Origin: a virus
Taxonomy: Duplodnaviria > Heunggongvirae > Uroviricota > Caudoviricetes
Reading direction: 5' to 3' (one strand)
Length of the DNA: 64,000 nucleotides
Virus record (IMG/VR): IMGVR_UViG_3300005683_000050
Location: 21,669-85,668 of that record
Shown here one piece after another: positions 15,807 through 47,295 of this stretch (positions within the stretch are counted from its first letter, which is position 1; each line of letters starts with the position of its first letter). Both the position numbers and the translations under genes were made by a program. Below the pieces are notes generated by a model, which saw only the letters and a list, made by a program, of their open reading frames with translations, was not told the origin of the DNA and made no database searches.

Positions 15807-15996
15807 GAACGAATCTTATGTAACCTGGCGCGTTCGACCACGCGCTGCTTTGCATAATGTTTGTATGAAAAGCGCGCCTTATTCGGATTGGATTTGCCGA
15901 GATGCAACCTGCACGACTCATTTATAGCACAGATTTTTCGACTTGTCAAGAGGAACATTTGTTCTAAGCGGGGCAAGAGTTACCTAAGATTTTCAG

Positions 15997-16069
15997 GCTG
16001 GGTCGGACTCCTGCCCTCCTCCGCTTTCGCGGTCAGTTGTAGTATCGCGCTATCGCCGCTTTTTGTCAA
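15997..16069 (-). ncRNA. sRNA cassette copy 1 (promoter + hairpin + AGGAGGGCAGGAG tail)
   Basis: TTGACA-17-GATACT, then CCGC-GAAA-GCGG, then AGGAGGGCAGGAGTCCGACCCAGC; 17 further copies listed under findings. Confidence 0.7.
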
Positions 16070-16109
16070 GGGTGTTGAAAAGTTTTAGAGTATGTGATAT
16101 GCTTTCGGT

Positions 16110-16514
16110 ATGAAGTTCATATACGACGATGGTGGTAGAAGTAAGGCTGGACATGCTGATTATCCGATGGACTGTGTGTACCGCGCGATTGCCATAGCAA
16201 ACCAAATGCCGTATGAAGTTGTTTTGTCGGATATAGGAGAGCGTTCCAAGACCGAACGCTCACGAATTCGGTCTAATGTGATAACTGGAGTACGGAGTGA
16301 TACTTCTGACAAGTATTTGACCATGTTGGGATGGATGCATGTTCGGATGGGACGCAAAAAGAGAATGATGCGTGAAGAGCATTTACCGAATGCGTTGTTG
16401 ATAGTCACAACCCCAGACCATATGACATGTATTGACCACTGGACGATACGCGATTTGTATAACTGCTCAAATTTTGGTGAAGCCAGAATAGATGGATACT
16501 GGATTAGACATTGA
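16110..16514 (+). CDS. DCxxRA-motif protein, paralog of 12711-13136
   Basis: YDDGGR...DCVYRAIAIA...HMTCID. Confidence 0.7.
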   Translation: MKFIYDDGGRSKAGHADYPMDCVYRAIAIANQMPYEVVLSDIGERSKTERSRIRSNVITGVRSDTSDKYLTMLGWMHVRMGRKKRMMREEHLPNALLIVTTPDHMTCIDHWTIRDLYNCSNFGEARIDGYWIRH

Positions 16515-16682
16515 CAAAGAAGGACGGTATACTCTAGATATGAGTGGTTCTATGCCGAAGACGGTTCTAATTTGTATGGCGAAACGGACGACAAGACCTA
16601 ATGACGCATAAAAAACTTCACAAGTTGATGTTTGCGTTGTATCCGTATCTTGACAAATCTGTGAGGATGTGATATACTATAG

Positions 16683-16843
16683 TTGTTGGTGAGAAGCTGG
16701 TAAACTAGATAAGACAATCTGTGCCAGTGAATACGCGTTGAGTAGTTCGCGGCAGCGCACCTGCCACCGCATCCAGATTGGTCGGGGACGCGTAAAAAGT
16801 AAAGACCAATCAAAAAGCACTGTCTATATAGACAGTGCTTTTT
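16683..16843 (+). ncRNA. Putative ~160-nt structured RNA ending in a palindromic terminator
   Basis: TTGACA-17-TATACT upstream; stems GTTGGT/ACCAAT, CAATCTG/CAGATTG, GGCAG/CTGCC; 32-bp perfect palindrome 16812-16843. Confidence 0.55.
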
Positions 16844-17354
16844 TGTATGCTACGACCACGAGGTATTCGACCACGGGCTTTTTGACCATGCGACCACGGG
16901 GGTTTGGACGCGCGGTTACACAAGGCGACCCGCCGCGCGCGACTTTACATAAGGCTGGTTACATAAGACTGATTCACTGCCGCGAGTTACATAAGAACTT
17001 GGATGTACACGGCGATAGCCGCGCGTGTCGCGGCTACACATCGGCAGAGAAAATTCTTTCTTCACGCTTTCACCCTATCACAAACCAAGCAGTTTGTCAA
17101 ATAGAACATATGTTCTATTTTTGTGCTGGGTCGGACTCCTGCCCTCTTGCGTTTTTCACGCTCGATTATAGTATAGCAGGAGTCCCATTTTTTGTCAAGT
17201 GGGGTTACATAAGATTTTTGTGCTGGTGCGGACTCCTGTCCTCCCCCACTCGTCGTGGTCAATTGTAGTATAGCGCACTGTGAAAATTTTGTCAATAGCA
17301 AAACCCCCACAAGTCTCGCTGTGGGGGTTATTCTACCGAATTATAGGATTACTT

Positions 17355-17422
17355 AGCGAATGGCAGGACTCGAACCCGCATCTTTGACTAACGCAACGCT
17401 TTGCCTATTTAGATACACTCGC
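17355..17422 (-). tRNA. tRNA-like element with shortened anticodon arm (loop centre TTA); probably not a canonical decoder
   Basis: 7-bp acceptor GCGAGTG/CATTCGC; T-arm GCGGG-TTCGAGT-CCTGC; D-loop with GG; anticodon stem only TTG/CAA; 68 nt; no encoded CCA. Confidence 0.6.
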
Positions 17423-17603
17423 CCATTTTTTACCGCCATTGCTCGGTTAACACTTTGGCGAACCTTTCGGAAAAATGAATCCCCAGAGTCAAGGTCTGCC
17501 CTGAGTCTGACTATTCATTGACATCATCATATCACGGATGTTTTCTTTTGTCAAGTGGTTGACAAAACTTGTTGAATTTGTTATAATTCTTTCAAGGAGA
17601 AAC

Positions 17604-18685
17604 ATGAAAAAAGTAGCGCGGATACTTGACCGCATTATTCAACGTTTCGGTATTCAGGACTATGCTGAATGTGCCACGTATATCGAATGCTGGCGATTCG
17701 GCATGGGGTCTGTCTGTGATTGGGATAGTGGCGATAACTTTGTCGCGCTTGGTGTCAAAATGTTTGGTGATTGGCACTCCTATACTATCCGAATGGACGA
17801 TGAGGTATGTTGATTTGCAAGCAGGTCATTCTCAACGTTGTGTATTGTGAAGACTTTGACAAATGGGTACAACGATACTTCGCGGTTGAGAACTTTGAGT
17901 TTATTGTATCAGAGCGGATGCAGTCTGATTCTTACAAAAAATTCACTGTTGGGAACAGTGTAAGCATGGACAGCCTGAGCGCTGTGGCACGATTCAAAAT
18001 TAGGGATGGTGATATGGCGTGGATAACCCAGACGCTACTTGACTATGCGTGCAGTCTTGGTGAAATAGAGCGCGGCGTCTATGTCATTGAAACGTAAGGC
18101 GTCTTGACAAATCTATTCGAGTTTGCTATACTGTCTGTGTAGACAGTATAGGAGGAGCATACTATGAGTGGCGGAGCTGGCATTAAAGTCACGGTTGAAT
18201 TGAAGTGGTTTCTCGTAAAATATACGGGACGGCGTTTAGTTGCCAATCCAGTTAGCGCGAAAAGTTTTTCGCTAGAGGGATGGATGGACGGAGCGAGAAA
18301 CTTGCGCGGGGATTTGTTGCGTATTGAAGTTGAGCCGATTATCACAGACAGTGAATATCGCGCCGAGCTCAAAAGTCTAGACATTGAAAAGGGTAGTCAG
18401 TTGGACTGTGAGATTGAAAGTGGAGAAGTCCATTGCTACATTTTCAGTGGCTATGTGCGCGGAAATTGGGAAAACGAATTCCCGTTGTATATTGAAACTA
18501 CCGCGTATGCTCATGGTTTTGGCGAAGTCCCGATTTGCGTCAAGGTCGAACCTGCGAATAAATCTGAATTTGGGGACATGTGGAAAGATATTTTTGAAAC
18601 AGACATTGACCCCGAAGACACAGACTTTGACGCGCAAGTTGAAGCGTGGCGTTCTGACTTGCGCGATAATTACGGCGCGCATTGA
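17604..18685 (+). CDS. Three hypothetical genes (17604-17813, 17807-18097, 18164-18685)
   Basis: Own promoters at 17559 and 18104; SD motifs. Confidence 0.7.
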
Positions 18686-18728
18686 CAAAAAAACAGGTAT
18701 GGTGTATTATATCTGTGGAGGTGACATT

Positions 18729-19253
18729 ATGGGATGGACGGGACTGAATCGCCAAAAAGGGACAACCAATCTCAAGTTTTTCCAGCGCGAGTTTGGAGAC
18801 AGGGTGATTGACGCGGCACAGCCGCGCGGCGAGAATGCGGTATATCTCGCCTGCCGCGAGGGAGCTGAAGTATACGCGGTGGTCGTTTTGGTGCAGTGGG
18901 TACGCGGTGATTATTTCAATTTCCGCTACAAGGAAATGGGCGAGAACTCTGAGCCGTTTTATTATAACTGCCCGCGTCGCATTTTCGACCAATTGACGCC
19001 AACGCAAAACGAATGCGCGCTGAAATGGCGCGCAAAGGTCATGGAACACATGGCGGAAGTTGAATCGTGCATGGGGAAATTGAAAGTCGGCGCACTCTAC
19101 CAACTTCCTCAAGGTATTACGCTCTGCGGATACCCATTACATCTCATGGAAATTACGAGTGTGCGACCCCTGCGCGCCAAACCTTATCCGTATGGGCAGA
19201 ATTTCAAGTTGAGCAAAAATCTCCTGCTCCAAAGCACATTGGTTGAAAAATAA
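18729..19253 (+). CDS. DUF6927-like protein
   Basis: MGWT...VYAVVVLV...FRYKEMGENSEPFYYNCPRRIFDQLTP...ALKWR pattern. Confidence 0.7.
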   Translation: MGWTGLNRQKGTTNLKFFQREFGDRVIDAAQPRGENAVYLACREGAEVYAVVVLVQWVRGDYFNFRYKEMGENSEPFYYNCPRRIFDQLTPTQNECALKWRAKVMEHMAEVESCMGKLKVGALYQLPQGITLCGYPLHLMEITSVRPLRAKPYPYGQNFKLSKNLLLQSTLVEK

Positions 19254-19341
19254 CATTCCTTGTAAACCACGCTTAGGCGTGGTTTTTTTGTCTACTTGAC
19301 AAGCAAGATTGATTCTGCTATAATAATTGTAAGGAGGCGAC

Positions 19342-20654: not shown

Positions 20655-20723
20655 ACGCGACTTTGGCGCAGTGCTTGACAAGTTTCGGCAGTTGGGGTAT
20701 AATAGAGACATGGAGGCAAATCA

Positions 20724-21563: not shown

Positions 21564-21961
21564 AACGCTTGTATCTGTTCCTGTATGGACAAGAAATACC
21601 GAGTTGGATGCCTTTGTTTCTTGTGCCTGACTACGTTGGCGGGAACTGCTTTCAGTTGTTTTTGTGGAAATTCGACTTTCCGCACAGTCTTGCTGGCGAT
21701 ACGTTTTTCATGGCATGGCGCGAAGAGTCGAAACGCGCGTCGCGGGGATAAAAACAAGGGGATGTACTCCCCTTGTTTTATTTTTATATCTTATAGAACA
21801 TATGTTCTAGTTACATAAGATTTTGATGCTGGGTCGGACTCCTGCCCTCCTCCGCTTCGCGGTCAGTCTCAATATACCATCTCGGCATATTTTTGTCAAC
21901 ACCCTTGACAAACTATCAGAGACATGCTATTATAGGGCATAGGTAAAAAACGGGGGTGAAT

Positions 21962-26367: not shown

Positions 26368-26967
26368 AACTAGATTGCTCTGTATCGCGCGGTATATGGT
26401 CTCGCGCTGAATTTAGCGAGTGCTTATCGTCGTTTAAGAACGGCACGATTATCGGCAATCCGAAATACCGAGATAGCGTCGGAAGTGAGGGGGTATGGCG
26501 CGATATAAACACATACCCCTACCGCAATTATTCGACTGTCTATTAAGACAGCCATCAATCCGAGATTGTTTTCGACCACGAGGATTTCGACCACGGGACT
26601 TTTGTCCTGTGGTTTTTTTGTTGATTCGACCACGAGGATTTCGACCACGGGGGTATGGTGGCGCGCAAAGAAGATGCCGACCTGAGTTACCCAAGAACGG
26701 CAGGTATGGCAAGGTCGGCGCATTATGTCAAGTTGCCGCGCGGAGATGCGCGGAAATAGACAAGGCGCGCGCCTTGTTTCCACGTTGGAATGTAGCACGT
26801 TTCTGACTTTTTGTCAAGTGAGGTTACATAAGATTTTTTTGCTGGGTTGGACTCCTGCCCTCCTGCGCTCTTCGCGCTCGGTCATAGTATCGCGCTAACG
26901 CATACCTTTGTCAAGTGGTGCAGAATTGCCTATTGACAAAAAAACGCGCTTAGACTATAATACCGAC

Positions 26968-27621
26968 ATGACCACAAAAAACATGTTCGGATACGGAAAT
27001 TCAAAGCTGGTGCATTTGCAAAATCGCGTGGGTAAAAAGGTTGCGACGTTTGACCTGCTCGCGGGTCATACCTGCCCGATGGCAAGCGACTGTAACGTGC
27101 GTGTCATTATCAGTAAAGGACACCGCCGATTGAAAAAGTTAGGCAAATGGGCTTGCTATGCGGCAAAAGCGGAATTGGTGTATACCGCTACATACCGCTT
27201 GCACAAAATCAATAAAACGCGCACTTTGCGCGATACGTTTGTAAAGCGCGCGATTCGCGAAATTGAAAAAAACCGCGTCGAGATTATGCGGATTCACAGT
27301 TCGGGAGATTTTTACTCTTGGGAGTATTTCCAAAAGTGGTACGCAATCGCGCAAGCGTTGCCGCATGTGTCGTTTTTTGGTTATACCAAGCAAGCGACCT
27401 TTGTAAAATGGTTACTTGCACACCCTCTGCCGAATTTGAAAATTGTTTACTCGCACGGCGGATTACTTGACAATTTCGCGGCAGCTCACAATTTGCCGAC
27501 GTGTTACGTGAAAACGCAAGAGGGTCAGTACCCCGAAATTCCTGTAGCTTGCGGCGCGGTACATAGCGACGATTACGAACACGTTTTAGCGCAGCATGAT
27601 TTTGTAATCGAGTTCCACTAG
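26968..27621 (+). CDS. Phage Gp88-like protein (copy 1), leaderless
   Basis: GNSKL...TFDLLAGHTCPMASDC...CYAAK...RIHSSGDFY; TTGACA-17-TATAAT-6-ATG. Confidence 0.8.
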   Translation: MTTKNMFGYGNSKLVHLQNRVGKKVATFDLLAGHTCPMASDCNVRVIISKGHRRLKKLGKWACYAAKAELVYTATYRLHKINKTRTLRDTFVKRAIREIEKNRVEIMRIHSSGDFYSWEYFQKWYAIAQALPHVSFFGYTKQATFVKWLLAHPLPNLKIVYSHGGLLDNFAAAHNLPTCYVKTQEGQYPEIPVACGAVHSDDYEHVLAQHDFVIEFH

Positions 27622-27997
27622 GGAGGGGGGGGACAATCCCCTCCCTAGCTTAGAACGATGCGCTATAATACAAAAGACGTAGCAAGGGGCAGCGAGCTTT
27701 GATAGAACCGACTAGGCACAGAGCATAAAATCCTGTGGACGCGAAAGGTTCGTAGCCGACCACGCGGGGAAAACGCGGTAAAGTGGGCGAAAGCACTGGT
27801 GCGAGTGTGAGTATCCCACAACCTTTTTTGTTTCGGTGTATGTTACATATAAGAACATGTGTTCTAATTGGATGCTGGGTTGGACTCCTGCCCTCTTACG
27901 CTATCCGCGTTCAGTTATAGTATCGCGCTATTTTCGTTTTTTGTCAAGGGACAGTATTGCACTTGACAAAAAACTCAGCAAGGTGTATCATTCAGCC

Positions 27998-30699
27998 ATG
28001 AATAACAAACATATAGCGCGAGTGTCTCGCGCACACCGCGCCAAAGCTGTAACCGATTTTATCAATTTTCAATTCGGGTGTGATAATATCACTGCCGAGA
28101 TGCAGCCTGTTTTCCAGAATGCCGATGAGTACGAAATCTTTGCGAATTGTCGGCGGGGCGATGTGCGTATGTTGAAAATTGCTATCTGTGCCTTTTTGCG
28201 CGGCGCGGAATGGCAAGAAAGTCGCGTTTGACAAACTTTTGACCTTGTGGTATATTGAACGTGTAGGACAAAATCAACCAAAAGGGGTGTGCTGTGAAAG
28301 AGTATTCTACCAAAACCAAGTCGGTGGTTGTTACTCTGTTTGAATTCGCTCTCAGCGTGCTTTTGAAGCTCAAATCGCGCGACGCGAATCGCGTTGCCGA
28401 AATCAAGGCACAGATTGCCGCGCTGAACAAAGAGCTCGCGAATGTGACTAAGGAATACAGTGATACGCAAAGCAAATTGACGATTGGTCTCATTCCGTTT
28501 GTTGAGCAGTGGGCGCGTGAAAATGAAGGCAGTTACGTCGGCAAGAATGGCAGGGTCAAAATTGTGCGTCCGTATTTGCGGCGCGTGTGGAGTGCTGACA
28601 AGATGGATGAAATCTTGGAACAAAACCCGTACTTGCTCCCCGTTTTGCAAGGCGCGTTTTCTGTGACACCTGTTGAGATTCAAGTCGAATTGCAAGTGTA
28701 AGACAATGCCCGCAAGGGCATTTTTTTACGTTCCGATAGAACATATGTTCTACTGGTTACATAAGAACTCTATGTCGGAAAATCGCAGTTTCAAACTGAA
28801 AATCCGTAGAACATTTGTTCCATTTCTAGGACTTGGGCCTTTTTGCTATATCCCACCGAATTTTGACTTATCGCCTGTCTGGATAGACAGTTGACAAAAA
28901 AAATGATTTGACGTATAATACAGACATGCAAATCAAAAAACATTTCCGAGCTGCCGATTTTACGGCGACCCAATTCGGTACGGCGCAAGAAAAGGCGGAT
29001 TTCGCAAATCACTTTATCTACTTTGTCGAAAGTGGATGCCCGTATCGTTTGTTTCACAAATGGTTTTACGGGCGACTGTCCATGTGTTTTTGTCATATCG
29101 CCCACTACAACAAAGACGGATTTTATAGTGTGTGGTTTTCGTCGGACGCTCATAAAAATTTCATGCAACACACTCTTTCTTTTGTCCCGTTTGGCGACCC
29201 GTATTATACGTATTGCGATGTTGAACATGCCCTGATAAAGTATTTCAAACGTCACCCGATTCGATAACGGTGGGCATTGCCCACCATCGGCGCGTGAATC
29301 TCCATAAAGGGAGACACGACAGCGAATTAACGCGAATACTGTACAGTATGACTTGCCCGTAAGCGAGTCTGGGGTGAATTGACACCCGCGCCGTCAATCT
29401 TTTATCGCTTGACAAATCCAGCGAGCTAGTGTATCATACATTCACAGGTGAAAAAGTGAAACGAGTCAAATGTAAAAGTGGACTGTCTGGACGCCAGCAA
29501 AAGCTGCAACGCATGTATCGTGGCAAAAGAGAGTTCATTTCATACACTGAAATCTACAACATTCATGGTCGTCTTGGTTTCAAGTCAGCAGAACGGTGTT
29601 GGACTGCCAATCCGTTAGTTGAATACTCTATAGACCCGTCCGATTTTCGTCGGGTGCGCGAGGTGAAAACTATCTGTCATTCGACGCTTGTGTGAAGTAC
29701 GGCGAAACCGATGCCGAGTTTACCGTAGAATGGTCAATGAGTAAAAACAAAACTCCGTACCGCGCGGGAAAGACGCTTTGGCAGCAATGGGGATTTTTTC
29801 TTCAGCCTGTCAGCGTTGTTGATTGCAGATTGACAAATTCTTGGAAATAGGGTAGAATACAGATACGGAAACACAACAAAGCTTTAACGGATGGCATTCT
29901 GGCGGACACGGTGTAAACGACATTAATGGACACTGAACAGCTTGTAGAACTTGAATTGTTCAAAGATATGCGTTGCCCGAAATGTTTCGGGCGCAATCTG
30001 ACCACGCGCGGAATCTTCAAAGACGTTACGCATGTTTGTATGGATTGCGGGAAAGAATGTACTGACGAAGAATCCTTGCGCGCTGGTCGGGAATTTCGAG
30101 AACGGAATAAAGAATAGATTCGACCACGGCACTTTCGACCACGAGCATTCACACACGCGCGGCAGATAGGGGATAGTGGATACCTGCCGCGCGAAGGCGC
30201 GGACAGGCGCGGAACGACCTGTCACAAAAAGTATAGCACGCTGTTCTTTTTTTGTCAATTTCGGTTACATAAGATTTTTGGGCTGGGTTGGACTCCTGCC
30301 CTCCTCCGCTTCGCGGTCAATTGTAGTATAGCGCTATTCTGATTTTTTGTCAAGGGATGGGCGATACTTGACAAATTGAAAGGGAAGGTGTATCATTTGA
30401 GTATGAATAAACATTCACCATATTTTGACCAGGAAAGTCCGATTGCGGAGATTGTTGGCATGATTGCGGATTTAGATGTATCCCGTCCTTATGAGCTATA
30501 CGCGACGGCGGTATTCAAGTGCAAACAGGGGTACTTGGTCGTTGGCGTTAGTGGATGCTCTTGTTGGCCTGACAGTGGCGGTACGTCTCAAGAATTTTGC
30601 CGCACGCGCGCCGATGTGGACAAACAATTGCGCGGGGAATGGCGCGAGCTTTTGACGCTTTGCCAACAGCGCAATTGGAAAATCGCTGTTGACAAATAA
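27998..30699 (+). CDS. Small hypothetical genes (27998-28231, 28294-28701, 28926-29267, 29456-29695, 29926-30117, 30403-30699)
   Basis: Own promoters; starts corrected to leaderless ATG where applicable. Confidence 0.65.
29270..29400 (+). ncRNA. Run of consecutive hairpins, putative structured RNA or 3' UTR
   Basis: GGTGGGC/GCCCACC, TCTCC/GGGAGA, ATACTGTACAGTAT palindrome, GGGTG/CACCC. Confidence 0.4.
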
Positions 30700-33292: not shown

Positions 33293-33593
33293 TTGGCAAA
33301 GTCCTAGACCGTAGAACATCTGTTCTATTTTAACGCTGGATTGGACTCCTGCCCTCCTGCGCTATTCGCGCTCAGTCATAGTATCGCGCCGTTCCTGTTC
33401 TTTGTCAAGAGTCGGGATGACTGTTTACGGGTCAATGTCGCAAGTGTTCTTTTGTGGCACACTCAAACATGGATTTTCGCACCCTTGACAAAATCGCAAA
33501 AAAGAGATATGATTATGATATAGAGGTTTTGACATACTGTAATTTGTAGATACCTGCGCCCGATTGGAAACGTAATTGCAGCGTTAAAGGGAA

Positions 33594-36198
33594 ATGGAAA
33601 GTATCAATCAAAGTATGTCAAGGCAAACCTCTAAAATTCAAGACATGGAGGCACGAATGTATAATACACTCAAAGCACTCGAATCGTTACTGAATCTTGT
33701 CTTTGCGATGGGATACAACCAAATCGTAGTAAGAATCAAAGATGCGCCGAATCATGTTTGTCTTTCGGTTTGGCGCGGGCGCGCGGAATGGATGCTACGC
33801 ATTGGTCAAATCAAAGACCAAAGCTGGTATGTGTATTACATTGACAACGGCGGTATTGTCATTCTCTTTGAAGGGTATGTTTTCGCTGACGCGCTCTGCG
33901 TGTTTTTCAAGAAATTGCACGAGATTGCAGATTGACAAAGTGTGGTGACTGGTGTATTATACAGACATGAAAAACATTACCTACCGCGAATACAATCTGA
34001 CGTTTTTCCAGGTTCCAAGTGGGTTTTATATCCACTGCGAAAGTATTGACGAAGAGTTTTATACGTCAATCTTCGACACATTGCAAGGCGCAATTGACGA
34101 AATGATGTGCTTGTGCGATGAACCGTACAAGGGGTGATATATATGCAACTTATCAAATGGAATGCTCTTAACCAGAAACAACGCGATGCGGTCAGGGTGT
34201 CGTTTCCGTATTGGTATCTCGACCAAACGGCAAAAACGATTGAAGGATGGGCAGAAAAACATGCGTTTTGGTTTACCAATCGCGGGAAACTGGCGCAAAA
34301 GCGCAGTGCTGAACCTTTGTCTTCAGCCAACCATTACGAAAAATGCGATACCAAAATCAAAATTCAACTGCACCACGAAAGCGGCAACGACGTACAAAGA
34401 CGCATTGACGCTCTGTATACGTTTCTCGGCAGCGATTATGGATATGGATTACAATTGTTTTTGGATGCGTTCACAGTGAACCGCAATAACGTTCCGATTG
34501 AAATTCGCGGACTGTTTAACGGGTATTTGGAAAACTATATTTATATTCACGGAACACTGACTGTCCGCATTTACTCGATTTGAAAAGTGTAATCAAAAAA
34601 CCGTACAGCAATGTACGGTTTTTTCGACCACGAGCCTTTCGACCACGAGCCTTTCGACCACGAGCCTTTCGACCACGAGCCTTTGTACGTGTGTGTGGTG
34701 GGAATGGACACAGAACGACCCACCGCGCCTACGCGCGGTGGGTCACTAAAAATCTCACCATGAAAATTATCTTACGCCGTTCTTTTTTTGTCAAGTGTTG
34801 GTTACACAAGATTTTTTTGCTGGGTTGGACTCCTGCCCTCCTGCGCTCTTCGCGCTCGGTCATAGTATCGCGCTATTCACGTTTTTTGTCAAGTGGGGAG
34901 TTTCCTATTGACAAAAGTAAGAATCAATCATATAATACAGACATGGAACAAAAACTTATCGAATCACTTGCGGAGAATCTGTCGGCATATAACGCCGAGT
35001 GTGTGAATGATGGGGACGGTCATTATACCCTATTCTTGAATGGTGTACCAGTGATAGGGTACTCTGAATCAAAATCGTCTTGGCGTTGCTACAATGCCAA
35101 CGGTGTATCAGTAGGGCGATATTCTTGTTCGGACGCTCTGACTCACCTTGCGAGTCATTTGTAGCTTGACAAAACATTTGAGTCGTGTTATATTGAATGC
35201 AAGACGGACAAAAAACAAGGGAGGAAAAATGCCGAAAAATCCGATGGGCAAAACGGTCAAAAAGGAAAACGCGTATGCGGTGTATCGCGGCGGCGGATTC
35301 GATTACTTGGTGCTGAAAACGTACCAATCCGCCGAAAAAGAAGATGCGAATCCGTATGCGCGATGGTTTCTCGCGACGCGCTCTCCGTATACGTACGGCA
35401 GTTGGGAGCTGGGCGATGGATACGTGCGCGACGTGAAACGCAGTGCCTATCGCTTGTTGGATACCGACGCGGACGCGTTTCTCAAACGCGAATTTGGCGA
35501 CAAGGCAGGCATTACCAAAGTAACCGCGTGAGACAAAAAGGGGTAGCCGAAAAGCTGCCCCTTTTTTATTTACCCCAAATAGAACATATGTTCTGCGGGT
35601 TACATAAGACATCGGTGTAGAACATCCGTTCTATTTTTGTGCTGGGTTGGACTCCTGCCCTCCTGCGCTCTTCGCGCTCAACGGTAGTATCGCAGGATTA
35701 CTGATTTTTGTCAATATCTGTGTGGCAGATTGACAAACTTTATTAGATTGTATATAATAGCATCATAGCGAAAGGATGAAAAAAATGAAAATCAAAATTG
35801 TTGCAATGGGTGGTCAAGAGGATGCCTCAGCGCGTGATTATTACGCTCACTGTATGGCAATGATTGGAATTGAGGGTGAGGTAGAAGAAATTGCAAGGGG
35901 TGGTTTGGTTGGGATTTGGCAATGCCGCATGGAAAAATGTACTGACCCGACGCTTGGGAATGTCATTAGTCCGTTGGTCTATATTGACAGTGAAAAATCT
36001 ACAGAAACGCGCCCGTGTGGTTACTTGTTTGCACAAATTGTTAGTGGGGGCCCGCGCGATTTGTTGCGCGCAAATCGAGTCGGTGCGTCAAATTATCGTG
36101 TATGGTATCATGGCGATGAATACTCTTCTTGGATTGTGTCAGAGCAAGAGTTAATAGAAGCATACCCGATACTCGCGCGGTCTCTTGGTCTCTCTTGA
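33594..36198 (+). CDS. Small hypothetical genes (33594-33935, 33967-34137, 34143-34583, 34943-35164, 35229-35531, 35776-36198)
   Basis: Promoter-linked; 33967 and 34943 leaderless. Confidence 0.7.
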
Positions 36199-36575: not shown

Positions 36576-36766
36576 TTTTGGTTCTAAAATAGCAAAGTCC
36601 TAGAATATAGAACATCTGTTCTATTTTTAGGATGCCTGTCCCTCCTGCCCTCCTCCGCTTCGCGGTCAATTGTAGTATAGCATCCCCAGCCGATTTTGTC
36701 AAGTCCTAAATTCGCCCTTGACAAATCCCAGAATGTGACATATAATAGAGTCATAAGGGGGTTAGA

Positions 36767-37430: not shown

Positions 37431-37848
37431 TACCTATTGACAAAGGTATGATACCTTGCTATAATAAGAGGGTAGAAAGGGGACAAAAATCATGGACGCT
37501 ATTCTCGGAAAACATGTGCGGGTTAGTGGTAACAGATGTGGCGTGGTCGCGTGGTATACCGACTTGCCTACCGTGTTGGGATTCTCGGTCAGGTACTACC
37601 ATGTTAACCTGTGGGGTAGCGGTGGCACGGTTGCCGCAACAATTGACGAAATCGAATTGCTGTAGGATATGACGACGACGAACAGGGCGAGTCTTGACAA
37701 AACCCTGTTCTTTTGCTATACTACAGTTGAGCGCGAAAGCGTGTGAGGACAGGAGTCCAACCCTACCTTATTATAGAACATATGTTCTGTCTGGATAGAC
37801 AGTTGACAAAAAGTGATTCGTGCGGCATAATAAGGACATGGAGGAAAA

Positions 37849-39771
37849 ATGAAAATCGTTCTGGTATATCAATGTGGCATTGCAAATGTTTTTCAGGTTT
37901 CGATATTCTCGAATGAAAGTAAAAACCGCAATGCAGTGCGCCTGTATCAAGGCAGCTTTGGACACTGCGTTAGCTTCGCGCGAGGGTGCGCGGCTGTTGG
38001 CGCGAATGTCAAAGTAGCAGCTTGCAATCAGGCTGGAGATATTACAAATTCGGTATGGTCAAGCGACATTGACGCCGCGCCGTTTTCGGAACAATTCACT
38101 AAAACGTTCAAGACAATCTAGAGTCTTGACAAATATCCAAACTTGGTGTATATTAGATTTGTAGGCGAAAAGGAGAAAAAACATGAACATTCTTTGCGAC
38201 GACCTGATGCCCGTACTCAAACAGCTGCAATCTGAAGGACTCGAAGTGTATAGTTATACGTCAATGGACATGCGCCAACGCGGAACGGCAACCAAATCGC
38301 TGTACTGGTTTGAGAATGGGTGTGTCTTGAACATTCAACCCGATGAATTCGGTTGGTACTACAATCTTGGCGTGTCTTACATTCCAAGTAGCGCAAACGG
38401 TTCGGGATGCCGCTTGACTCATGCTGACGGATATGGATACCACCCCGAAGGTGTGCGCGCTGACGAAGTACTGAAATTTCGCAACGCGGCAACGTGGGTT
38501 CGCGGCGCGCAGAATTACAAGAGCATGGAGCATTTTCTCAAAGAGCAATCCAAGTTTGTCTTGAAATTCGCGAAATTGGACGCTGACGGCAAAGTGATAG
38601 ACGAGACGCCCTAAAGCGTCTCTTTTTTTTGCGTGTCCATCTTATGTAACCAAGTAGAACAAATGTTCTAATCAAAAACCGAGTCATTGACTCGGTTTTT
38701 TTGTTTTGAGCGCGAAAATGGCTAAGTCCTAGAACATAGAACGTCCGTTCTATTTCGACGCTGGTGCGGACTCCTGTCCTCACACGCTCCCGCGCTCAAT
38801 GTGAATATACCATGCTTGTCAAGTTTTGTCAAATGCTTGACAAATAATCCATCGGCTGCTATAATAGTCACAGTGAGGCGAAAAATGAATCCGAGAATCA
38901 AGGTAAACAAATCACAGGTTGGCGAAATCGTTTCCGCGGTATTCCCTGAATACAAAGGTAGAAAATTCTGGGTAGTGTATGCCGAATCGGTTACGCTGCA
39001 CGACACCAATTGGGGCGGTGGTACACGCAATTTTTATCGCGGACTGAATCGCACTGGTGAAATTCGCAGTCCATTCGTTCCCTCTCCGTGGGTCAATCCG
39101 TTTGAGGGTGCGAAGATTGAATTGACAGCAGAAGTACTTTTGGTAGAACATTCTATTTTCTGTGGAAAAGATTTGGGCGTTACAATTTACGCTCACCCGT
39201 CGCTTGCTGAAAAATTGCTGACCGCTTGACAAATGTAATGCGTAATGATATTATGAACGCATGGAGGCAAACAATGCTTGAATTCATTCACTCGTTTTTG
39301 CATGTTGCAATCATGGAATCGGCACAATGTCGCGTGATTGCAAATGAAAACGGATTCATTTTCAGCGCAGAAAATACGCACGGGAAAATATCCGTAGCGT
39401 ACAAACGCGGTAATCCGTTTCGTATCACATTTGCTGATGACGATTACATGGATACGAACGCCGCTTCGATGGTTTCGGCGCAGATACTCGTCGCACTGAC
39501 CGCTTGACAAATGTAATGCATAATGATATTATGAACGCATGGAGGCAACATGAAAATCAAAATCGCAGTTAAAAAAGGTACGCCGCAGAAAATGGACGCC
39601 GACGACCAACCGACGTTTGAACAATGGTCAAAGCGCGTGGATGCCCTTGTGCAACGTTTCGCTTGCATGTCTTTGTATGACCTGCCAGACGTGCCTTTGA
39701 TGGATTGGTACAACGCGAGACTGCGCCCGATTCGTGCCGCAAACCGCGCGCTGAAATACGCACAAGAGTAA
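37849..39771 (+). CDS. Small hypothetical genes (37849-38121, 38183-38614, 38885-39229, 39274-39507, 39550-39771)
   Basis: Each has its own TTGACA-17 promoter and SD. Confidence 0.75.
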
Positions 39772-39976: not shown

Positions 39977-41054
39977 GGTTACATAAGACGGCGGCATAGA
40001 ACATCCGTTCTATTTTGACGCTGGCTGCCGCTCCTGCCCTCCTCCGCGTTTGCGGTCAAATGTAGTATCGCGCTAACGCTCACTTTTGTCAAGTAGAACA
40101 TCTGTTCTATTGCAAGTTACATAAGACAATAGAACATCCGTTCCTCTTGACAAATTTTATCACTTAACCTATAATAGGCACATGAGCAAAAAAATGTTCG
40201 GTACACAGAATAGCAAGTTGACACATTTGCAATCGCGGCTAGGGAAAAAAGTCGCGACGTTTGACCTGTTGGCGGGGCATACATGCCCTATGGCAAATTT
40301 ATGTCATGCGCGCGTGGTAGTTCGCAATGGTCACAAGAAAATTCTCAAACTTGGAAAATTCTTGTGTTACGCGGCAAAGGCCGAAGCTGTATATCCGTCC
40401 GTATACAAATTGCATAAAATCAATAAGACGCGCAGCTTGCGCGCAACGTTTGTCAGTCGCGCTATCCGCGAAATTGTCAAAAACAATTTCGAGATTGTAC
40501 GCATTCACTCAAGCGGTGATTTTTACGATTTTGCGTACTTTCAAAAATGGTATACAATCGCGCAAGCATTGCCAAATGTGACTTTTTTTGGATACACCAA
40601 ACAAGCAACGTTTGCAAATTGGCTTATCGCTCACCCGTTACCAAACTTGAAAATTGTGTATAGTCACGGCGGACTACTTGATGACTATGCGGCAGCTCAC
40701 AATCTGCCTACATGCTACGTTGAAACACAAGAGGGCCAGTATCCCAACATTCCCCTAGCATGTGATGCCGTACATAGTGACGACTTTGAGTACGTTATGG
40801 CGCAAGTGACATTCAAGATTGATTTTCACTAAAACGCGCCGAGTCAATGAAAAACCTACGGGAAACAAGTTAAATCCCTGTAGGTTTTTTGTTCTATTCG
40901 TCAGAACATTTGTTCTATCGGTTACATAAGACGGCGGCATAGAACATCCGTTCTATTTTGACGCTGGCTGCCGCTCCTGCCCTCCTCCGCGTTTGCGGTC
41001 AAATGTAGTATCGCGCTAACGCTCACCTTTGTCAAGTAGAACATCTGTTCTATT
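39977..41054 (+). repeat. 135-bp direct repeats (39977-40111 and 40920-41054, 1 mismatch) flanking Gp88-like copy 2
   Basis: Direct comparison of the sequence. Confidence 0.9.
40182..40832 (+). CDS. Phage Gp88-like protein (copy 2), leaderless
   Basis: Clearly similar to 26968-27621: NSKL...TFDLLAGHTCPMANLC...CYAAKAE...RIHSSGDFY. Confidence 0.8.
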   Translation: MSKKMFGTQNSKLTHLQSRLGKKVATFDLLAGHTCPMANLCHARVVVRNGHKKILKLGKFLCYAAKAEAVYPSVYKLHKINKTRSLRATFVSRAIREIVKNNFEIVRIHSSGDFYDFAYFQKWYTIAQALPNVTFFGYTKQATFANWLIAHPLPNLKIVYSHGGLLDDYAAAHNLPTCYVETQEGQYPNIPLACDAVHSDDFEYVMAQVTFKIDFH

Positions 41055-41088: not shown

Positions 41089-43423
41089 ATGGAAAACAAA
41101 ATGACACACCCAAACAAGAATGCCGCAATTAACGCCGCGCGCTTCGCTAGCACTTTTGACGGTGTAGCGTACGCTGTAGTAGCATTGATGGGCGGAATTT
41201 TCGAAATTTGCAAGGTGTCGGAATTGCGCGATTTTAGCATGGTCATAGTCGCGTACAAGTACGGGCGGATATTCAATCTGAATTGAGCTCTTGACAAATT
41301 TCCCTATCCGCGCTATAATGCTCTTGTAGGCAAAATTCACAAAAGGGGTGAAACGTGATTATCAAAGTCGGCAAGAAAACGGGTGTTGACCTCAGCACGG
41401 GCAAGGTAGTACTGTTGGGCAAGGGCAAGGGCAAGTAGGGGCTAACGCCCCTTTTTTTTGATTCGCAATAGAACATCTGTTCCACGCGGTTACATAAGAA
41501 TTTTTGAATAGTTGGCAAAGCGGGCGGTTACACAAGATTTTAGATTCAGAAAACTACGCTTTATAGTTAGGATTCCATAGAACATTTGTTCCATTTCTAG
41601 GACTTGGGCCTTTTTGGCGGTTTGCGATAAAATCAAAAAAGCGGGATACTTGACAAAAAAAACTATTCCGCGTATAATGAGTATATGGAAAACAAGATAA
41701 CAAAAATCAACGAATTGATGAAAGCATTAATGCCCCAAATTTACATTGATGCATACAGTAAAGATGCCAAAGATTTTTTATATTTCGGGTTTCTCGAACG
41801 CCCTGGACAATTACTCTTGGCTGTTATCCAAGAGACATGGATTGTAGAATTCAAGGATTGGTATAGTGGGGAGATTCTGCAAATTTACCAGGGGACGGAC
41901 GCTGAACGCGCTTTTAGTTTGTTTTATGAACGGGCGCGTTTAATCAAGGCGATACAAGAATAAAAAAGGGGAAAAAACAATGCCTATCGAAATCATTGTC
42001 GCAATCGGACTCGCTGTAGCATTCAGTGTCTCGTTGACTCTCACATTTTCGGCAAAACGTCAACGGGCTGTCAAGTACGGCAAGAATCGGTACGAACGCC
42101 TATCGCGGTGATAGGCATTTTTGGTGGTTACATAAGACGGCAGTATAGAACATCCGTTCTATTTTAACGCTGGCTGCCGCTCCTGCCCTCTTGCGGTATC
42201 CCCGCTCACCTACATTATCGCAGATTCACACAATTTTGTCAAGTAGAACATTTGTTCTGGTCGGTTACATAAGACGGGCGTACAAAAAAAAACCCCTTGC
42301 GGGGCTACATTTCGATATTTCGCCAAAAAAATATAAAGGCAGTACCAAAAACGACGGCGAAAATCAGGGTAGGAATAATGTTTTCCATTGTATGCGCTCC
42401 CTTGTGAATGCTTGCTTGCCTATGTTTTAAGTATAGGTCAAATGAAGAAATTTGTCAACAGTCAAAAATGACTCGATTCTACCTATTGACAAAAACGAAA
42501 TTTTGCGTATAATAGACTATAGAGGGGTGAAAAATGTCAACAGAATTCTCTTTTGTCACTGGTAACAATGAACTCCATGAATTTGCCTTGCAATCTTGCG
42601 GTTGGCAATTTTCGTTCACACGCCCGCTTGACAAAACCGCCGCGCCGTGATACAATGCTCTTGTAGGCAAACTTCACAGGGAGATGAAAAATGACACACA
42701 GTGAAGCAATCGCACAAGCGCAGAATGTGTATCGAGCAATCCACATGTACGTTGTCAAATTTCCAGATGGCACATTTGGAGTTGCAGAGGGGTACAAGGT
42801 CACAAGCGATGGGCGCGCTGAAGTTTACGGAAAAAATGGGCGCGCGATGGAGCATTACTTTCGCACGCAATACTGTGGGCGTTTTGATGAATCTGGTACA
42901 TACAAATTTGGGACGGATTGACCAAAGGGGAGCGTATGGACACAAAACAAATGCTTGAAAAAGCGATGGAATACAATGGCGCAAAACGCGCGAAACTGAT
43001 TTTGCTCGCGGTGTGTCTCGATGTGAACAACGAGCTCACTAACGCTGAACGTGCCGAAGCTTTGCTGAATGCGTACAACGCTCTCCAATTTGAAGAAGAC
43101 CCTGTAAATTTGGAAATTTGACAAAAAAACAAGACCGTGCTATACTACTTTTGTCGGCGGAGATTTACGAAAAGTACCTTAATCTCTGCCGACAACTCCC
43201 AAAAAGGATAAACACCAAAATGACAGAAACATGGCACGTAGTAAAATACGCAAGCGACGGTACGGTACTTGCAAGATTCGAGACTGAAAATTTGAATGAA
43301 CGCGCCCTGCAAGAATGGTGTGATGAGCAAAAAGGTAGAAAAGTCGTTGCAACAGCCGAAGGAAATTTCGTCACGTTTGAATACAAAATCCCAACTTGGC
43401 GCAACCAAGAATTCGATTTCTAA
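41089..43423 (+). CDS. Small hypothetical genes and micropeptides (41089-41286, 41355-41438, 41685-41963, 41980-42111, 42691-42921, 42936-43121, 43220-43423)
   Basis: Promoter/SD or leaderless architecture. Confidence 0.6.
42305..42388 (-). CDS. 27-aa hydrophobic membrane micropeptide
   Basis: Minus TTGACA-17-TATACT, AAGGGAG SD; MENIIPTLIFAVVFGTAFIFFWRNIEM. Confidence 0.6.
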   Translation of the reverse strand: MENIIPTLIFAVVFGTAFIFFWRNIEM

Positions 43424-44185
43424 AAAAGAAAACCGCGAATTATATCGCGGTTTTCTCATTTTTCGACCACGAGCCTTTCGACCACGAGGATTCGACCACG
43501 AGCCTTTCGACCACGGGGTATTGCTCGGCACAGATTTTACCCAAATTTTGCCCGTCTTGGGTAACTCCGCCCCGATTTTCCGAACTTTTGTTCTAAAATG
43601 ACGTTTTTTGCCTATAAAATAGGCATTTTTTCGCCTTTGACTCTATAATTATACCCCAAAACGAGATTTTTGTCAATTCCACTTTACATAACGCGCGATA
43701 GGTTACATAAGAATATGCACCAGGTAGGCGCACAATAGAACGAGTTACATAAGAATTTTAGCACTCTATCCGACAGGGTGCTAAAAAGTTACATAAGAAT
43801 AGGCGCAATTTTACGTTTTCTTTCAAATTCTTCAGTTACACAAGAATTTTTTTCCGAAAAATGCGCTTTTATAATTATAAATCCATAGAACATTTGTTCA
43901 CATTCTAGGACTTGGGCCTTTTGGCGGTTTGCGAAAATTCGCAAACCGCGCCGCGTAGAAAATTTGTTCTATGTCAGTGCAGAGTGCGCGAAGCATAGAA
44001 CGTCCGTTCTACTCGCAGGTCGTTGGGTGTTAGAACGGATGTTCGGTTACATAAGACGCGGCAGGTCGCGTTTCGAGCGTTAGAACGGACGTTCTAATTT
44101 CGTGGTTACATAAGATTGCGCTCACAAGCCTAGCGCGGTTACATAAGACGGACGTACAAAAAAAATGCCCTTGCGGGCATTTTTT
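43424..44185. other. Gene-free, repeat-rich convergence region (terminator, TTCGACCACG x4, GTTACATAAGA array, LexA boxes, AT-rich tract)
   Basis: Read directly; the rightward and leftward early arms meet here. Confidence 0.8.
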
Positions 44186-44638
44186 CTATTTATTCACCAC
44201 AATTTTTCCCGCGCCCTTGCCATTTGAGGCCTTTTGTAATCGCAAGAATAAATCGGTACGCGGATTGTCGTTTCCGTCAAGAAACAACATTTCGGTACTG
44301 ATTCCGTCTTTCAGGAACTCCAGGCAAATTTTTTGTAGTTCATCTGAAAGATACCAAACTAAAGTCCCAACTACAAACGAGCGAAATTGACGCCGCATTT
44401 CCGCGCGGATTGCATCAATTTCGCGCGCGGTGTCATTCAGCGCGTGTATGTCAATCGCATTATCGCCACTTAAGGCAACAAATTTTTTCCAATTGCGTTT
44501 GCCATTATCTTTGCATTCATTGTACGGGTCTCCGCGTCCCCCGCGGAACTCGTTCGCAATTTCGCGCCGTTTTCTATTCAGCGCGATAATGTCATTCAAA
44601 AATTCTGCAATTCTTTCAAGTTCTTGTGCGATAATCAT
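44186..44638 (-). CDS. Hypothetical protein
   Basis: Start moved to MIIAQE after the shared leader with AAGGGG. Confidence 0.75.
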   Translation of the reverse strand: MIIAQELERIAEFLNDIIALNRKRREIANEFRGGRGDPYNECKDNGKRNWKKFVALSGDNAIDIHALNDTAREIDAIRAEMRRQFRSFVVGTLVWYLSDELQKICLEFLKDGISTEMLFLDGNDNPRTDLFLRLQKASNGKGAGKIVVNK

Positions 44639-45130
44639 TTTGTTTGCCCCTTGTGATTTTGCGGATGCCCTATTACATCCCCACACCAACATTATAGCAG
44701 ATTGCAAAAAAAACACAAGCGCGTCAACCTTAAAGATTCCGCGCGGTTTCGCGTCAATTCTTTAAGGTATGGATGTTCTATTCGCAGGTCGTTGCGTGTT
44801 AGCACATTCGTTCTACGCGGTTACACAAGACGCCCCGAAACAACGTCTAGAACGGATGTTCTATTTTGACGCTGGCTGCCGCTCCTGCCCTCCTCCGCGC
44901 TTGCGGTCAAACGTAGTATCGCGCCGATTGTGCCGCGTGTCAACTAGCACTTTTGTTCTACTCGCAGGTCGTTGGGTGTTAGAACGGATGTTCGGTTACA
45001 TAAGACGCGGCGGGTCGTTGCGCGTGCTAGAACAGATGTTCTATTCGCAGGTCGTTGGACGTTAGCACATTTGTTCTATGCGGTTACACAAGACAGGCGT
45101 ACAAAAAAAATTGCCCTTGCGGGCAATTCT

Positions 45131-45424
45131 CTAGCTCCAGTCCCATACTTCTTCTACGCGCAATCCTTGCGTGTTATTCCTGTACGATTCGCGCAACATA
45201 ATAGTTGTGACGCGGCGATTGCGAATAACTGCAACAATCGTATCACCCGTTGATTGTCCCGCGTGAACAGTGTATCCGATTTTATACAAGATAACTGCTG
45301 TGTCGCGCGTAGCTTGCTTCGCGGCATTGTTCGCAGCGCGTGCGATGTTTGCGGCAATTTTGTCGCCAATGCTTTTTTTAACTCTTGAATCAACCCTGTC
45401 CGCAGCATGTCCAAAGATTGCCAT
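45131..45424 (-). CDS. Hypothetical protein
   Basis: Start moved to MAIFGH after the shared leader. Confidence 0.7.
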   Translation of the reverse strand: MAIFGHAADRVDSRVKKSIGDKIAANIARAANNAAKQATRDTAVILYKIGYTVHAGQSTGDTIVAVIRNRRVTTIMLRESYRNNTQGLRVEEVWDWS

Positions 45425-45692
45425 TTTGTTTGCCCCTTGTGATTTTGCGGATGCCCTATTGCATCCCCACACCAACATTATCGCATAGGTCACACCGCGT
45501 GTCAACTAGCACTTTTGTTCTACTCGCAGGTCGTTGGGTGTTAGAACGGATGTTCGGTTACATAAGACGCGGCAGGTCGTTGCGCGTGCTAGAACAGATG
45601 TTCTATTCGCAGGTCGTTGGACGTTAGCACATTTGTTCTATACGGTTACATAAGACGGACGTACAAAAAAAATGCCCTTGCGGGCATTTTCT

Positions 45693-46163
45693 TTACTTGA
45701 AACGTTTCGCGCATACTGGCCCTATGCCATTCGCGACACTCTTTGCATCTTTTAATTTCGTCCCGCACCATACACAATAGCCGTACTGTATTGCCAATTC
45801 CTTGGCCTCTTGTGCATTCATTTTCATATCTGCATCAAGCGAATACACCGCACCACGTTCATATTCATAATCCCATTTTACCACTTCTAATTCACCATTC
45901 AGGCGGTTACCCGTGATAATGTGCAATCGCTCCGCGTATAACGCGGTTTTCGATTGATTGAATTTAACGCGGTATATGGTTTCACCGCGCTTGTAAATCC
46001 CCTCTTGCGTTACACCTGCGCGCGCCGCGCTTTGAGTCTGTACGTTTTTGCATCCATTCGCGCATGTCGCGCCGCTTTCGCGCGTCCATTCAATTTTCGT
46101 TCCTGCCAAAATTGTCGCGCCGCACTTTTTGCATTTTCCGTCAAATTTCGATGTGATAATCAT
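45693..46163 (-). CDS. DUF6011-like Zn-binding protein
   Basis: N-terminal KFDGKCKKCG; C-terminal YCVWCGTKLKDAKSVANGIGPVCAKR. Confidence 0.7.
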   Translation of the reverse strand: MIITSKFDGKCKKCGATILAGTKIEWTRESGATCANGCKNVQTQSAARAGVTQEGIYKRGETIYRVKFNQSKTALYAERLHIITGNRLNGELEVVKWDYEYERGAVYSLDADMKMNAQEAKELAIQYGYCVWCGTKLKDAKSVANGIGPVCAKRFK

Positions 46164-46491
46164 TTTTTCGCCCCTTGTGATTTTGCGGATGCCCTATTGC
46201 ATCCCCACACCAACATTATCGCATAGGTCACACCGCGTGTCAACTAGCACTTTTGTTCTATCTTGCAGGTCGTTGGGTGTTAGAACGGATGTTCGGTTAC
46301 ATAAGACGCGGCGGGTCGTTGCGCGTGCTAGAACAGATGTTCTATTCGCAGGTCGTCGGATGTTAGCACATTTGTTCTATACGGTTACATAAGATAGGCG
46401 TACAAAAAAAAATGCCCTTGCGGGCATTCTATTTTTAGAAGCGGCATTCAGGAATGCCGCGCCATTCATTTGACCTTCGCACTTTCGAGAT

Positions 46492-46956
46492 TTATTTGAC
46501 TATGGTGCAAATAGTTTTGTGAAATTTCCATCCGCCCCTTGTGTATTTGTCCGCGTTGAATTCAGAATTGACATACCATTTTTCGCCAAGTACAACTTCT
46601 GTGCCGCATTCAATAGATTGCATATATTTCACGCGCCCATTTTGCACTGCAATTTGCGCGTCCCAATTTCCATCGTCGTCAACGGAACGATAAATATCTT
46701 GCCGCGTTTCGTGCCAAAAACCCACGTACATTCCCCATTCCTTGTGAGATAACTTGACGACAAGAAAACAAGGCACGCCGTTAATTTCGGTTTCCATGTC
46801 TATTTCGCGAAAGTTCACGATTTCGTAAATTTTTCCATAGTCAGCACTGTTGTCGCCCACAGCGAACCATGTCTGTCCATTATAGTTCGGCGCGAGGTAT
46901 TCATCTGCGATTTTTTTCAGTGCGTTGAAAATTTCAGTTGCATTTTGGTTTTCCAT
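46492..46956 (-). CDS. Hypothetical protein
   Basis: 154-aa ORF with its own cassette leader. Confidence 0.75.
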   Translation of the reverse strand: MENQNATEIFNALKKIADEYLAPNYNGQTWFAVGDNSADYGKIYEIVNFREIDMETEINGVPCFLVVKLSHKEWGMYVGFWHETRQDIYRSVDDDGNWDAQIAVQNGRVKYMQSIECGTEVVLGEKWYVNSEFNADKYTRGGWKFHKTICTIVK

Positions 46957-47295
46957 TTCGGTTTGTCCTTTTGTCTGATTTGGATGCGCCCTATTGCGCC
47001 GCCACGTTCACAAGTATAGCAGGTTTTCCGAAAATTGCAAGCGCGTCAACCTTAAAGATTCCGCGCGGTTTCGCGTCAATTCTTTAAGGTGCGGATGTTC
47101 TATTCGCAGGTCGTTGCGTGTTAGCACATTTGTTCTACGCGGTTACACAAGAAAACTTTGCGCGGCGCGCGCGCGTACAGAATTCTCGGAGCGGCGCGAA
47201 CGCGCGCGCGAATGCACTCGGTTTACGTCTAACGACTGAGGGTATCTGTGTTTGTAGAATCTTGTATTACTATACTAGAGCGTCTATAGAGGGAC

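Follow-up and report, generated by a model that had tools for sequence, protein, structure and literature searches.

LexA-type palindromes in the early region of an apparently virulent phage: candidate operators for a host repressor placed outside promoter cores

The early region of an uncultured tailed phage is studded with a short palindrome, GAAC-N4-GTTC, which raises the question of what, if anything, reads these sites and what they do for the phage. The phage is represented by a single-contig record of 149,668 bp (IMG/VR record IMGVR_UViG_3300005683_000050) with a CheckV completeness of 100%, and the stretch analysed here, referred to as the window, is the 64,000 nucleotides from base 21,669 to base 85,668 of that record. 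The answer favoured here, with a probability of about one half, is that the LexA repressor of the host binds 44 extended copies of the palindrome as operators of high affinity, and that these act as SOS-conditional boundary or repressor sites in cis and not as classic operators within promoters.

Abundance and distribution of the palindrome

The window contains 38 exact matches to GAAC-N4-GTTC against 1.28 expected from dinucleotide-preserving shuffles, the largest number in any shuffle being four, and the whole genome contains 42. From the flanks of these core matches it became apparent that the full unit of the repeat is a 16-bp palindrome, TAGAAC-N4-GTTCTA, with TA present on the left of 31 of the 38 and on the right of 23. 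When sites were defined as matches to this 16-mer with at most two mismatches, at most one of them in the core, 44 were found in the window (hereafter boxes), all between 15,951 and 47,137, compared with a mean of 1.4 in Markov simulations; the remaining 118 kb of the genome has one further site. Perfect AGAAC-N4-GTTCT accounts for 24 of the boxes and the perfect 16-mer for 19, and eight are TAGCAC variants. The three core matches that lack TA flanks (8229, 20894 and 57649) are all genic and their number fits chance expectation.

The interval occupied by the boxes is for the most part one of small genes. On the plus strand a block of these extends from 11.5 to 43.6 kb under 57 near-consensus promoters of the form cTTGACAAA-N17-TATAAT, with ~27 more promoters of equal quality pointing leftward inside the rightward block, and on the minus strand from 47 to 64 kb there is a late siphovirus-type tail operon (tape measure 58415-62896). 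With gene calls based on codon usage 43 of the 44 boxes were intergenic, the sole exception overlapping a weak call of 56 amino acids. Numbers per 5-kb bin from 15 to 50 kb were 2, 1, 3, 1, 7, 19 and 11, and no extended site was found in the late tail operon. A first-pass annotation of the same DNA had described more than 30 copies of the core, AGCAC variants, an intergenic location, a density climbing toward 40-47 kb and a late operon in which no box was noticed, and all of these descriptions held when the sites were counted; its box coordinates were correct to within one base, the offset arising because the flanking A had been counted.

LexA operators of the Anaerolineae and the likely host

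The Cheo box, GAAC-N4-GTTC, is the LexA operator of the Gram-positive and Chloroflexota type, and Fernandez de Henestrosa et al. are said to have given AGAAC-N4-GTTCT in 2002 as the LexA box for Dehalococcoides. A comparison with 61 genomes of the class Anaerolineae, 59 of which have lexA and from which 34 lexA loci were inspected, revealed a close resemblance. In 30 of these 34 GAAC-N4-GTTC is situated upstream of lexA at a distance of no more than 140 bases, and in 29 it fills the spacer of a promoter with the near-invariant design cTTGACA-TA-GAAC-N4-GTTC-GTG-TATAAT (L137-L166). The left flank is TA in 22 of these 29 boxes, the N4 always starts with a purine and ends with a pyrimidine, as it does in the phage boxes, and several second boxes downstream in the lexA loci are the full TAGAAC-N4-GTTCTA. 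In those lexA promoters that have TTGACT as the -35 the box moves by one base and TAGAAC is retained; the TA is therefore part of the operator and not of the promoter. Phage promoters and host-type promoters share the same consensus, and host-type genomes also hold 14-mers identical to those of the phage, e.g. AGAACATATGTTCT, with 3-11 perfect copies per ~4 Mb, whereas the phage has 24 in 31 kb. The identification of a LexA-type box, already made in the first-pass annotation, was thus strengthened, the palindrome being equal to the LexA operator of a Chloroflexota lineage over 16 bp, including the purine and pyrimidine that bound the N4. The comparison supports the view that the phage box is the symmetric consensus form of the LexA operator of an Anaerolineae-type lineage.

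Several of the Anaerolineae-class genomes have tandem lexA paralogs. The recA gene could not be used as a second member of the LexA regulon, a box being found within 400 bases upstream in only 1 of 30 Anaerolineae genomes. In Dehalococcoides recA is likewise not known to be controlled by LexA.

The portal protein has many metagenomic relatives at ~50% identity. When a portal profile was used to scan one genome per GTDB species there were five matches, three of them in Chloroflexota: a Chloroflexi metagenome-assembled genome (MAG) at 41%, an Anaerolineae genome at 38%, where the match lies within a 1.13-Mb contig and is adjoined by a terminase match, and an uncultured Anaerolineae at 45%. No strict box was found near the related prophage in the Anaerolineae contig. 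The portal relatives in Chloroflexota assemblies agree with the earlier proposal of a Gram-positive-type or Chloroflexota host, and judged from sequence a Chloroflexota host seems likely, at roughly two chances in three.

A phage-encoded repressor was also sought. No LexA_DNA_bind, Peptidase_S24 or HTH_3 domain was found in the phage genome, and none of the 94 predicted proteins from the first 48.5 kb of the window matched a regulator family in Pfam or PHROGs; a search for a LexA-like repressor elsewhere in the genome, as had been proposed at the outset, gave none. Phage_integrase, Resolvase and AAA_31 (ParA) were likewise without a match in the 149.7-kb record. The phage is therefore apparently virulent and does not look temperate, and by the same token a lysogeny switch of the GIL01/CTXphi type is not what its gene content suggests.

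Box placement and a proposed role in cis

The position of the boxes relative to promoters is distinctive. A random 16-mer in local non-coding DNA would overlap a span from -35 to -10 19% of the time, so that 8.5 overlaps are expected among the 44 boxes, and none was observed (P ~8e-5 taking all 44 as independent; 0.006 for the 24 boxes with dissimilar contexts). A LexA operator is expected to overlap a promoter core or transcription start, where LexA occludes RNA polymerase, and 0/44 boxes overlap a span from -35 to -10. Of the 57 consensus promoters that point rightward, ~55 lack a neighbouring box, and a LexA site at a master lytic promoter, as in a switch of the GIL01/CTXphi type, was not found among them. 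The early promoters thus do not appear to be LexA-controlled in general, and the SOS gating of the whole host-takeover region that the first-pass annotation had put forward is not supported.

Many boxes are instead tied to a family of antisense small RNAs (sRNAs) with 18 promoter-driven units between 16041 and 44943, 17 of them leftward and one rightward (37694). Each unit consists of a consensus promoter, a covarying hairpin, AGGAGGGCAGGAG..CCCAGC and an A-run, and ends with a box in 12 units and with a second motif, termed Y, in the other six. The 12 boxes sit 51-53 bases below the -10, i.e. at about +46 to +61 of the transcript. Y is the 12-mer GGTTACATAAGA, present in 33 copies of which 31 are on the plus strand whatever the local gene direction; its copies are confined to 15814-47152, the interval of the boxes, with none elsewhere in the 150-kb genome, and besides occupying the box slot of sRNA units it often follows a box by 2-4 bases. 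Six boxes form composites in the order terminator, box, Y. Seven boxes are exactly one base from a -35 hexamer (40094, 40130, 41037 with promoters facing both sides, 42244, 44945, 45507 and 46245), and by eye two more (15951 and 17102) abut weaker leftward promoters, bringing the number abutting a -35 to ~9. Six boxes at 43.58-44.10 kb crowd the end of the rightward block and the start of the leftward genes, and three four-box arrays lie in front of small genes, each occupying the space from a terminator to the leftward promoter that comes next. The fixed geometry at -35 elements and sRNA starts suggests cis action.

Both the binding of LexA and its repression or blocking of transcription at the boxes are things we infer from these patterns. 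Host LexA, the phage having none of its own, would occupy the boxes. Where a box precedes a -35 by one base, as ~9 do, its centre is near -44.5, and a LexA dimer there would be expected to interfere with sigma region 4 or the alpha C-terminal domain; the promoters so affected would be those of the small leftward genes at 44-47 kb (2-4 boxes each), of the rightward genes 40182 and 41089 and of several antisense units. The 12 boxes at about +46 to +61 of sRNA units could serve as LexA roadblocks limiting antisense read-through into the preceding early gene. The boxes left over follow terminators closely or are heaped up at convergent transcription. Both at +46 and behind terminators the roadblock would work in two directions and confine transcripts to their units. 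There is a phage precedent for LexA sites downstream of a transcription start in GIL01 (PMC4551915). Upon DNA damage LexA self-cleavage would lift the blocks, and part of the phage programme would therefore depend on the SOS state of the host; the dependent subset would comprise the antisense RNAs together with four small genes read leftward, one gene of the GP88 family and one of 65 amino acids, with most early promoters remaining LexA-independent. So many sites would inevitably titrate LexA as a side effect. As the sites outnumber those of a host-type chromosome and all lie outside promoter cores, the phage probably reads or manipulates the SOS state of its host, and the occurrence of arrays of the same 16-mer in unrelated IMG/VR phages, described below, fits a shared host factor.

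Substantial caveats must be applied to this interpretation. No phage promoter has the host-type design with a box in the spacer, so the classic repressing position is empty. The fixed spacings could have been inherited through cassette duplication and not selected. A simple LexA model explains neither the strand polarity of Y nor its presence in the box slot of six sRNA units. As regards the host, the G+C content of the phage is 45% compared with 51-66% at the sampled Anaerolineae lexA loci, and the two portal matches of highest identity are in short contigs (12 kb and 1.4 kb) of MAGs outside the Chloroflexota, although these contigs are probably binned phage fragments or binning errors. Clostridial LexA boxes may also start with AGAAC or GGAAC (PMC4234289), and the flanks alone therefore do not fix the phylum.

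Taken from left to right, the first boxes are widely separated. The box at 15951..15966, with two mismatches, comes to within one base of the -35 of a weak promoter that points leftward; a perfect box at 17102..17117 lies at ~+46 of a leftward sRNA unit (promoter 17170-17198) and also abuts a degenerate leftward -35; and another perfect box, at 21794..21809, is located below the sRNA promoter 21871-21899, with a terminator before it and Y fused to it. The +46 position of an sRNA unit is occupied by boxes at 27851..27866 (one mismatch; promoter 27919-27947), 33312..33327 (perfect; promoter 33380-33408), 36608..36623 (perfect; promoter 36674-36702) and 37774..37789, the last belonging to the sole rightward unit (promoter 37694-37722) and lying 13 bases upstream of the rightward promoter 37803. 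Pairs of boxes are found at three places in this part. Within 28737..28822 one box (28737-28752) follows a terminator and precedes Y, and the other (28807-28822) precedes CTAGGACTTGGGCC. The boxes at 35580-35595 and 35618-35633 are in the order terminator, box, Y, box, the second being at +46 of an sRNA unit (promoter 35686-35714). The third pair consists of two perfect boxes, one at 38655-38670 beside an inverted Y and a terminator and one at 38737-38752 at +46 of an sRNA unit (promoter 38804-38832).

Farther to the right boxes occur in larger groups. Three at 39997..40145 comprise an sRNA +46 box (39997-40012), a box one base from the leftward -35 at 40092 (40094-40109) and a box one base from the -35 of the rightward promoter 40147 (40130-40145), which drives the leaderless GP88-family gene 40182-40832. 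Another three, at 40902..41052, comprise a terminator, box, Y composite (40902-40917), an sRNA +46 box (40940-40955) and the box at 41037-41052, which has a -35 one base away on either side, leftward at 41035 and rightward at 41054. Two boxes at 41469..41593 are a terminator, box, Y composite (41469) and a box followed by CTAGGACTTGGGCC (41578), and these are succeeded by an sRNA +46 box at 42146-42161 and by a box at 42244-42259 that leaves one base to the leftward -35 at 42242 and precedes Y and a terminator. The six-box cluster at 43580..44096 (43580, 43886, 43956, 43996, 44031 and 44081) lies at the junction of the rightward early block and the leftward genes. At 44800..44863, upstream of the minus-strand gene 44186-44638, there is a TAGCAC variant (44800) and a box at +46 of an sRNA unit (44848; promoter 44915-44943). 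The four-box arrays are at 44945..45078, with CAACGACCTGCGA-type spacers and the proximal box one base from the leftward -35 at 44943; at 45507..45640, upstream of promoter 45477-45505, which drives gene 45131-45424 (-); and at 46245..46379, upstream of promoter 46215-46243, which drives gene 45693-46163 (-, zinc-ribbon/DUF6011). The last box, a TAGCAC variant with Y at 47122..47137, is upstream of gene 46492-46956 (-).

Other repeated words accompany the boxes. Tandem repeats of TTCGACCACG and three copies of CTAGGACTTGGGCC are found in the early spacers. CTAGGACTTGGGCC / AAGTCCTAGA adjoin boxes in mirrored orientation (28826, 41597 and 43905; also 33300, 36595 and 38725) and contain the word TAGGAC one base from the box half-site; by analogy with dinBox1b of GIL01, this word may therefore be a LexA half-site. 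In the four-box arrays (44945-46379) a conserved spacer word (GCAGGTCGTTGG on the plus strand) precedes each box, and this may be a second protein site or just a trace of tandem duplication.

The early genes have features of their own. Sixteen of the 57 rightward promoters, between 12676 and 41700, are of a leaderless type, with ATG (in one case GTG) 6-8 bases, mostly 7, after the -10, and the start codons behind them open reading frames of at least 40 amino acids (e.g. 26933, 28891, 40147 and 41054), so that about a quarter of the early mRNAs look leaderless. Two paralogous genes of the GP88 family (PF17338), at 26908-27621 and 40182-40832, have 70-73% DNA identity over ~420 bases; both are leaderless and the second is directly behind the box-flanked promoter. 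The large terminase (796 amino acids; L002:15103-17493, -) and an N6/N4 DNA methylase (624 amino acids; L001:9240-11114, -) each have a LAGLIDADG_3 insert, which is probably an intein. A protein with a PARP catalytic domain and a weak WGR match is encoded at L001:13472-14626 (-), with genes for an RNA ligase and a CCA-adding/polyA-polymerase-HD enzyme as neighbours.

Other phages, competing explanations and known systems

Searches for relatives of the boxed region gave no match by blastn of 39.9-47.2 kb against GenBank phages, no exact match to the sRNA core in IMG/VR and no relative when IMG/VR was scanned with the portal as a single protein; the contigs with the closest portals (69%, 54% and 56% identity), which cover structural genes only, have no boxes. 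Scanning IMG/VR for the 16-mer revealed mostly single, chance-level matches. A scan for two AGAAC-N4-GTTCT boxes within 8-38 bases gave 67 stretches against ~two expected, and tight arrays of the TA-flanked 16-mer were found in several contigs of 53-61% G+C, with 7-9 boxes in 250-400 bp (including a tandem run of four with a 19-bp pitch), 10 in 1.6 kb or seven identical ones in 2.2 kb. Whole-record counts in the phages with arrays were 4-10 boxes against 0 for a control pattern. The records with box clusters are L052/L224 (G071), L033/L250/L237 (G072), L221 (G068), L220 (G069), L251 (G070) and L016 (G001), and a single N4 is common to all, or almost all, of the boxes in G068 and G069. Among the arrays in these other phages, one is just upstream of a terminase gene, and another is upstream of genes for an SNF2 helicase, VRR-NUC and an adenylosuccinate-synthetase-like, perhaps PurZ-like, protein. 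Six boxes also fall together within 9 kb in a 190-kb phage with a G+C content of 38%, the portal of which is not related to that of the present phage. Literature string searches for the 14- and 16-mers gave no match. The present phage appears as an extreme case of a recurring habit that is undescribed as far as the literature searches show.

The main alternative, tentative though it is and already raised in the first-pass annotation, is that the ~44 sites of a virulent Chloroflexota phage are super-consensus LexA operators that mainly soak up free LexA as phage DNA enters or replicates, derepressing the SOS regulon without DNA damage or RecA activation, with the arrays in other phages being the same device. 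Such a sponge would account for a density of perfect 14-mers far above that of a 4-Mb host-type genome, for phage sites that are closer to the symmetric consensus than the lexA operators of the hosts themselves and for the zero overlap with promoter cores, as if boxes were deliberately kept out; the tight arrays of other phages, such as four boxes at 19-bp pitch, also resemble sinks more than switches. It is, however, at odds with the recurrent exact spacing to -35 elements and sRNA starts, which points to cis action, and with the substitution of Y for a box in the same slot. Autoregulation of lexA in host-type genomes would buffer titration, and the lack of a box at recA in all but one of the 30 genomes sampled makes the benefit of inducing SOS less clear.

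It is unlikely that the boxes are instead read by a phage-encoded protein of an unrecognised family, perhaps with a Y-binding partner, their likeness to LexA boxes being mimicry or coincidence. There are ~90 small early open reading frames without a family assignment among which such a protein could be hidden, Y and the spacer motif CAACGACCTGCGA are other specific sites in the same cassettes, and the single N4 shared by boxes of G068 and of G069 hints at a binder that reads the N4. Nevertheless, no helix-turn-helix, LexA-like or repressor family was found across the genome, and mimicry would have to extend to identity with the host-clade operator over 16 bp and to recurrence in unrelated phages.

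There is very little to recommend the notion that the boxes are functionless passengers of a duplicating intergenic cassette, of the kind represented by promoter/stem-loop shuffling elements. Repeat families of 60-180 bases at 60-99% identity do carry many boxes, but 24 boxes have mutually dissimilar flanks (<60% identity) and so are not copies of one repeat, and boxes were found in at least five different contexts. Pairwise identity falls from 0.89 over the 12 specified positions to ~0.30 over the 20 bases on each side, although the former value is partly circular because the sites were picked by consensus match. Least probable of all is a nucleic-acid hairpin (in RNA a terminator or processing site, in DNA a cruciform) without a protein, and a protein site accounts for the data better, for although many boxes have a T-run after them on the plus strand and twelve are at the 3' side of sRNA units, the fold is worth only -4.3 kcal/mol compared with -10 to -14 for the real terminators of the phage, the eight TAGCAC variants, which lack any compensating change, form no fold, and the non-palindromic Y takes the place of the box in six units. 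Intrinsic terminators, with a stable G+C-rich hairpin and a U-run, were also considered as a class for the boxes and rejected on the same folding energy and unfolded variants.

It was known already that host LexA runs the switch of a few temperate phages via two or three sites. What is new here is an apparently virulent 150-kb phage with more perfect LexA-type sites than a host-type chromosome, all outside promoter cores and tied to an antisense small RNA family, together with similar arrays in several uncultured phages that are unrelated. Should LexA bind, the sites would give a lytic phage a new means of reading the DNA-damage state of its host, or would be a DNA decoy against a global repressor. 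The boxes also indicate, from sequence, where the host of an uncultured phage may lie, in a phylum, the Chloroflexota, for which few phages have been described, and they offer a ready set of sites for tests of LexA roadblock activity.

Known systems resemble the present one in part. The stoperators of cluster A mycobacteriophages, bound by L5 gp71, are tens of intergenic repressor sites, some of which block elongation downstream of promoters, and the scatter of tens of short sites through intergenic spacers is shared. Stoperators, however, lack symmetry, follow the direction of transcription and are occupied in the lysogen by a repressor of the phage, whereas here the sites are palindromic and neither a phage repressor nor asymmetric oriented sites were found. 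The PeSL cassettes of T4-type phages, repeated and modular intergenic promoter cassettes between small early genes, are similar in their modular arrangement with promoters, but have no host-repressor sites and no antisense sRNA units. Closer in principle are the temperate phages GIL01/Bam35, where LexA acts with gp7, and CTXphi, which are run by host LexA; they lack a LexA of their own and use host LexA sites, as the present phage probably does. Those phages are lysogenic, and their two or three sites belong to a single switch promoter, whereas the present phage has 44, leaves its main early promoters untouched and has no integrase, resolvase or ParA in its record. The virulent phage phi29 reads host regulators through Spo0A boxes and parS sites in its early region, and is thus alike in having several sites, in the present case putative ones, for a host master regulator in the early region of a virulent phage, where they would sense the state of the host. 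Its regulator is a different one and its sites are far fewer, and they overlap early promoters and replication origins, in contrast to the avoidance of promoter cores here. The nearest comparison is with the host-type LexA operators of the 29 Anaerolineae-class lexA promoters, which have the same palindrome, TA flank and purine-pyrimidine centre as the phage boxes; these operators fill the spacer between -35 and -10, a position never taken by the phage boxes, and in the number of perfect sites the phage exceeds the host-type chromosome several times over.

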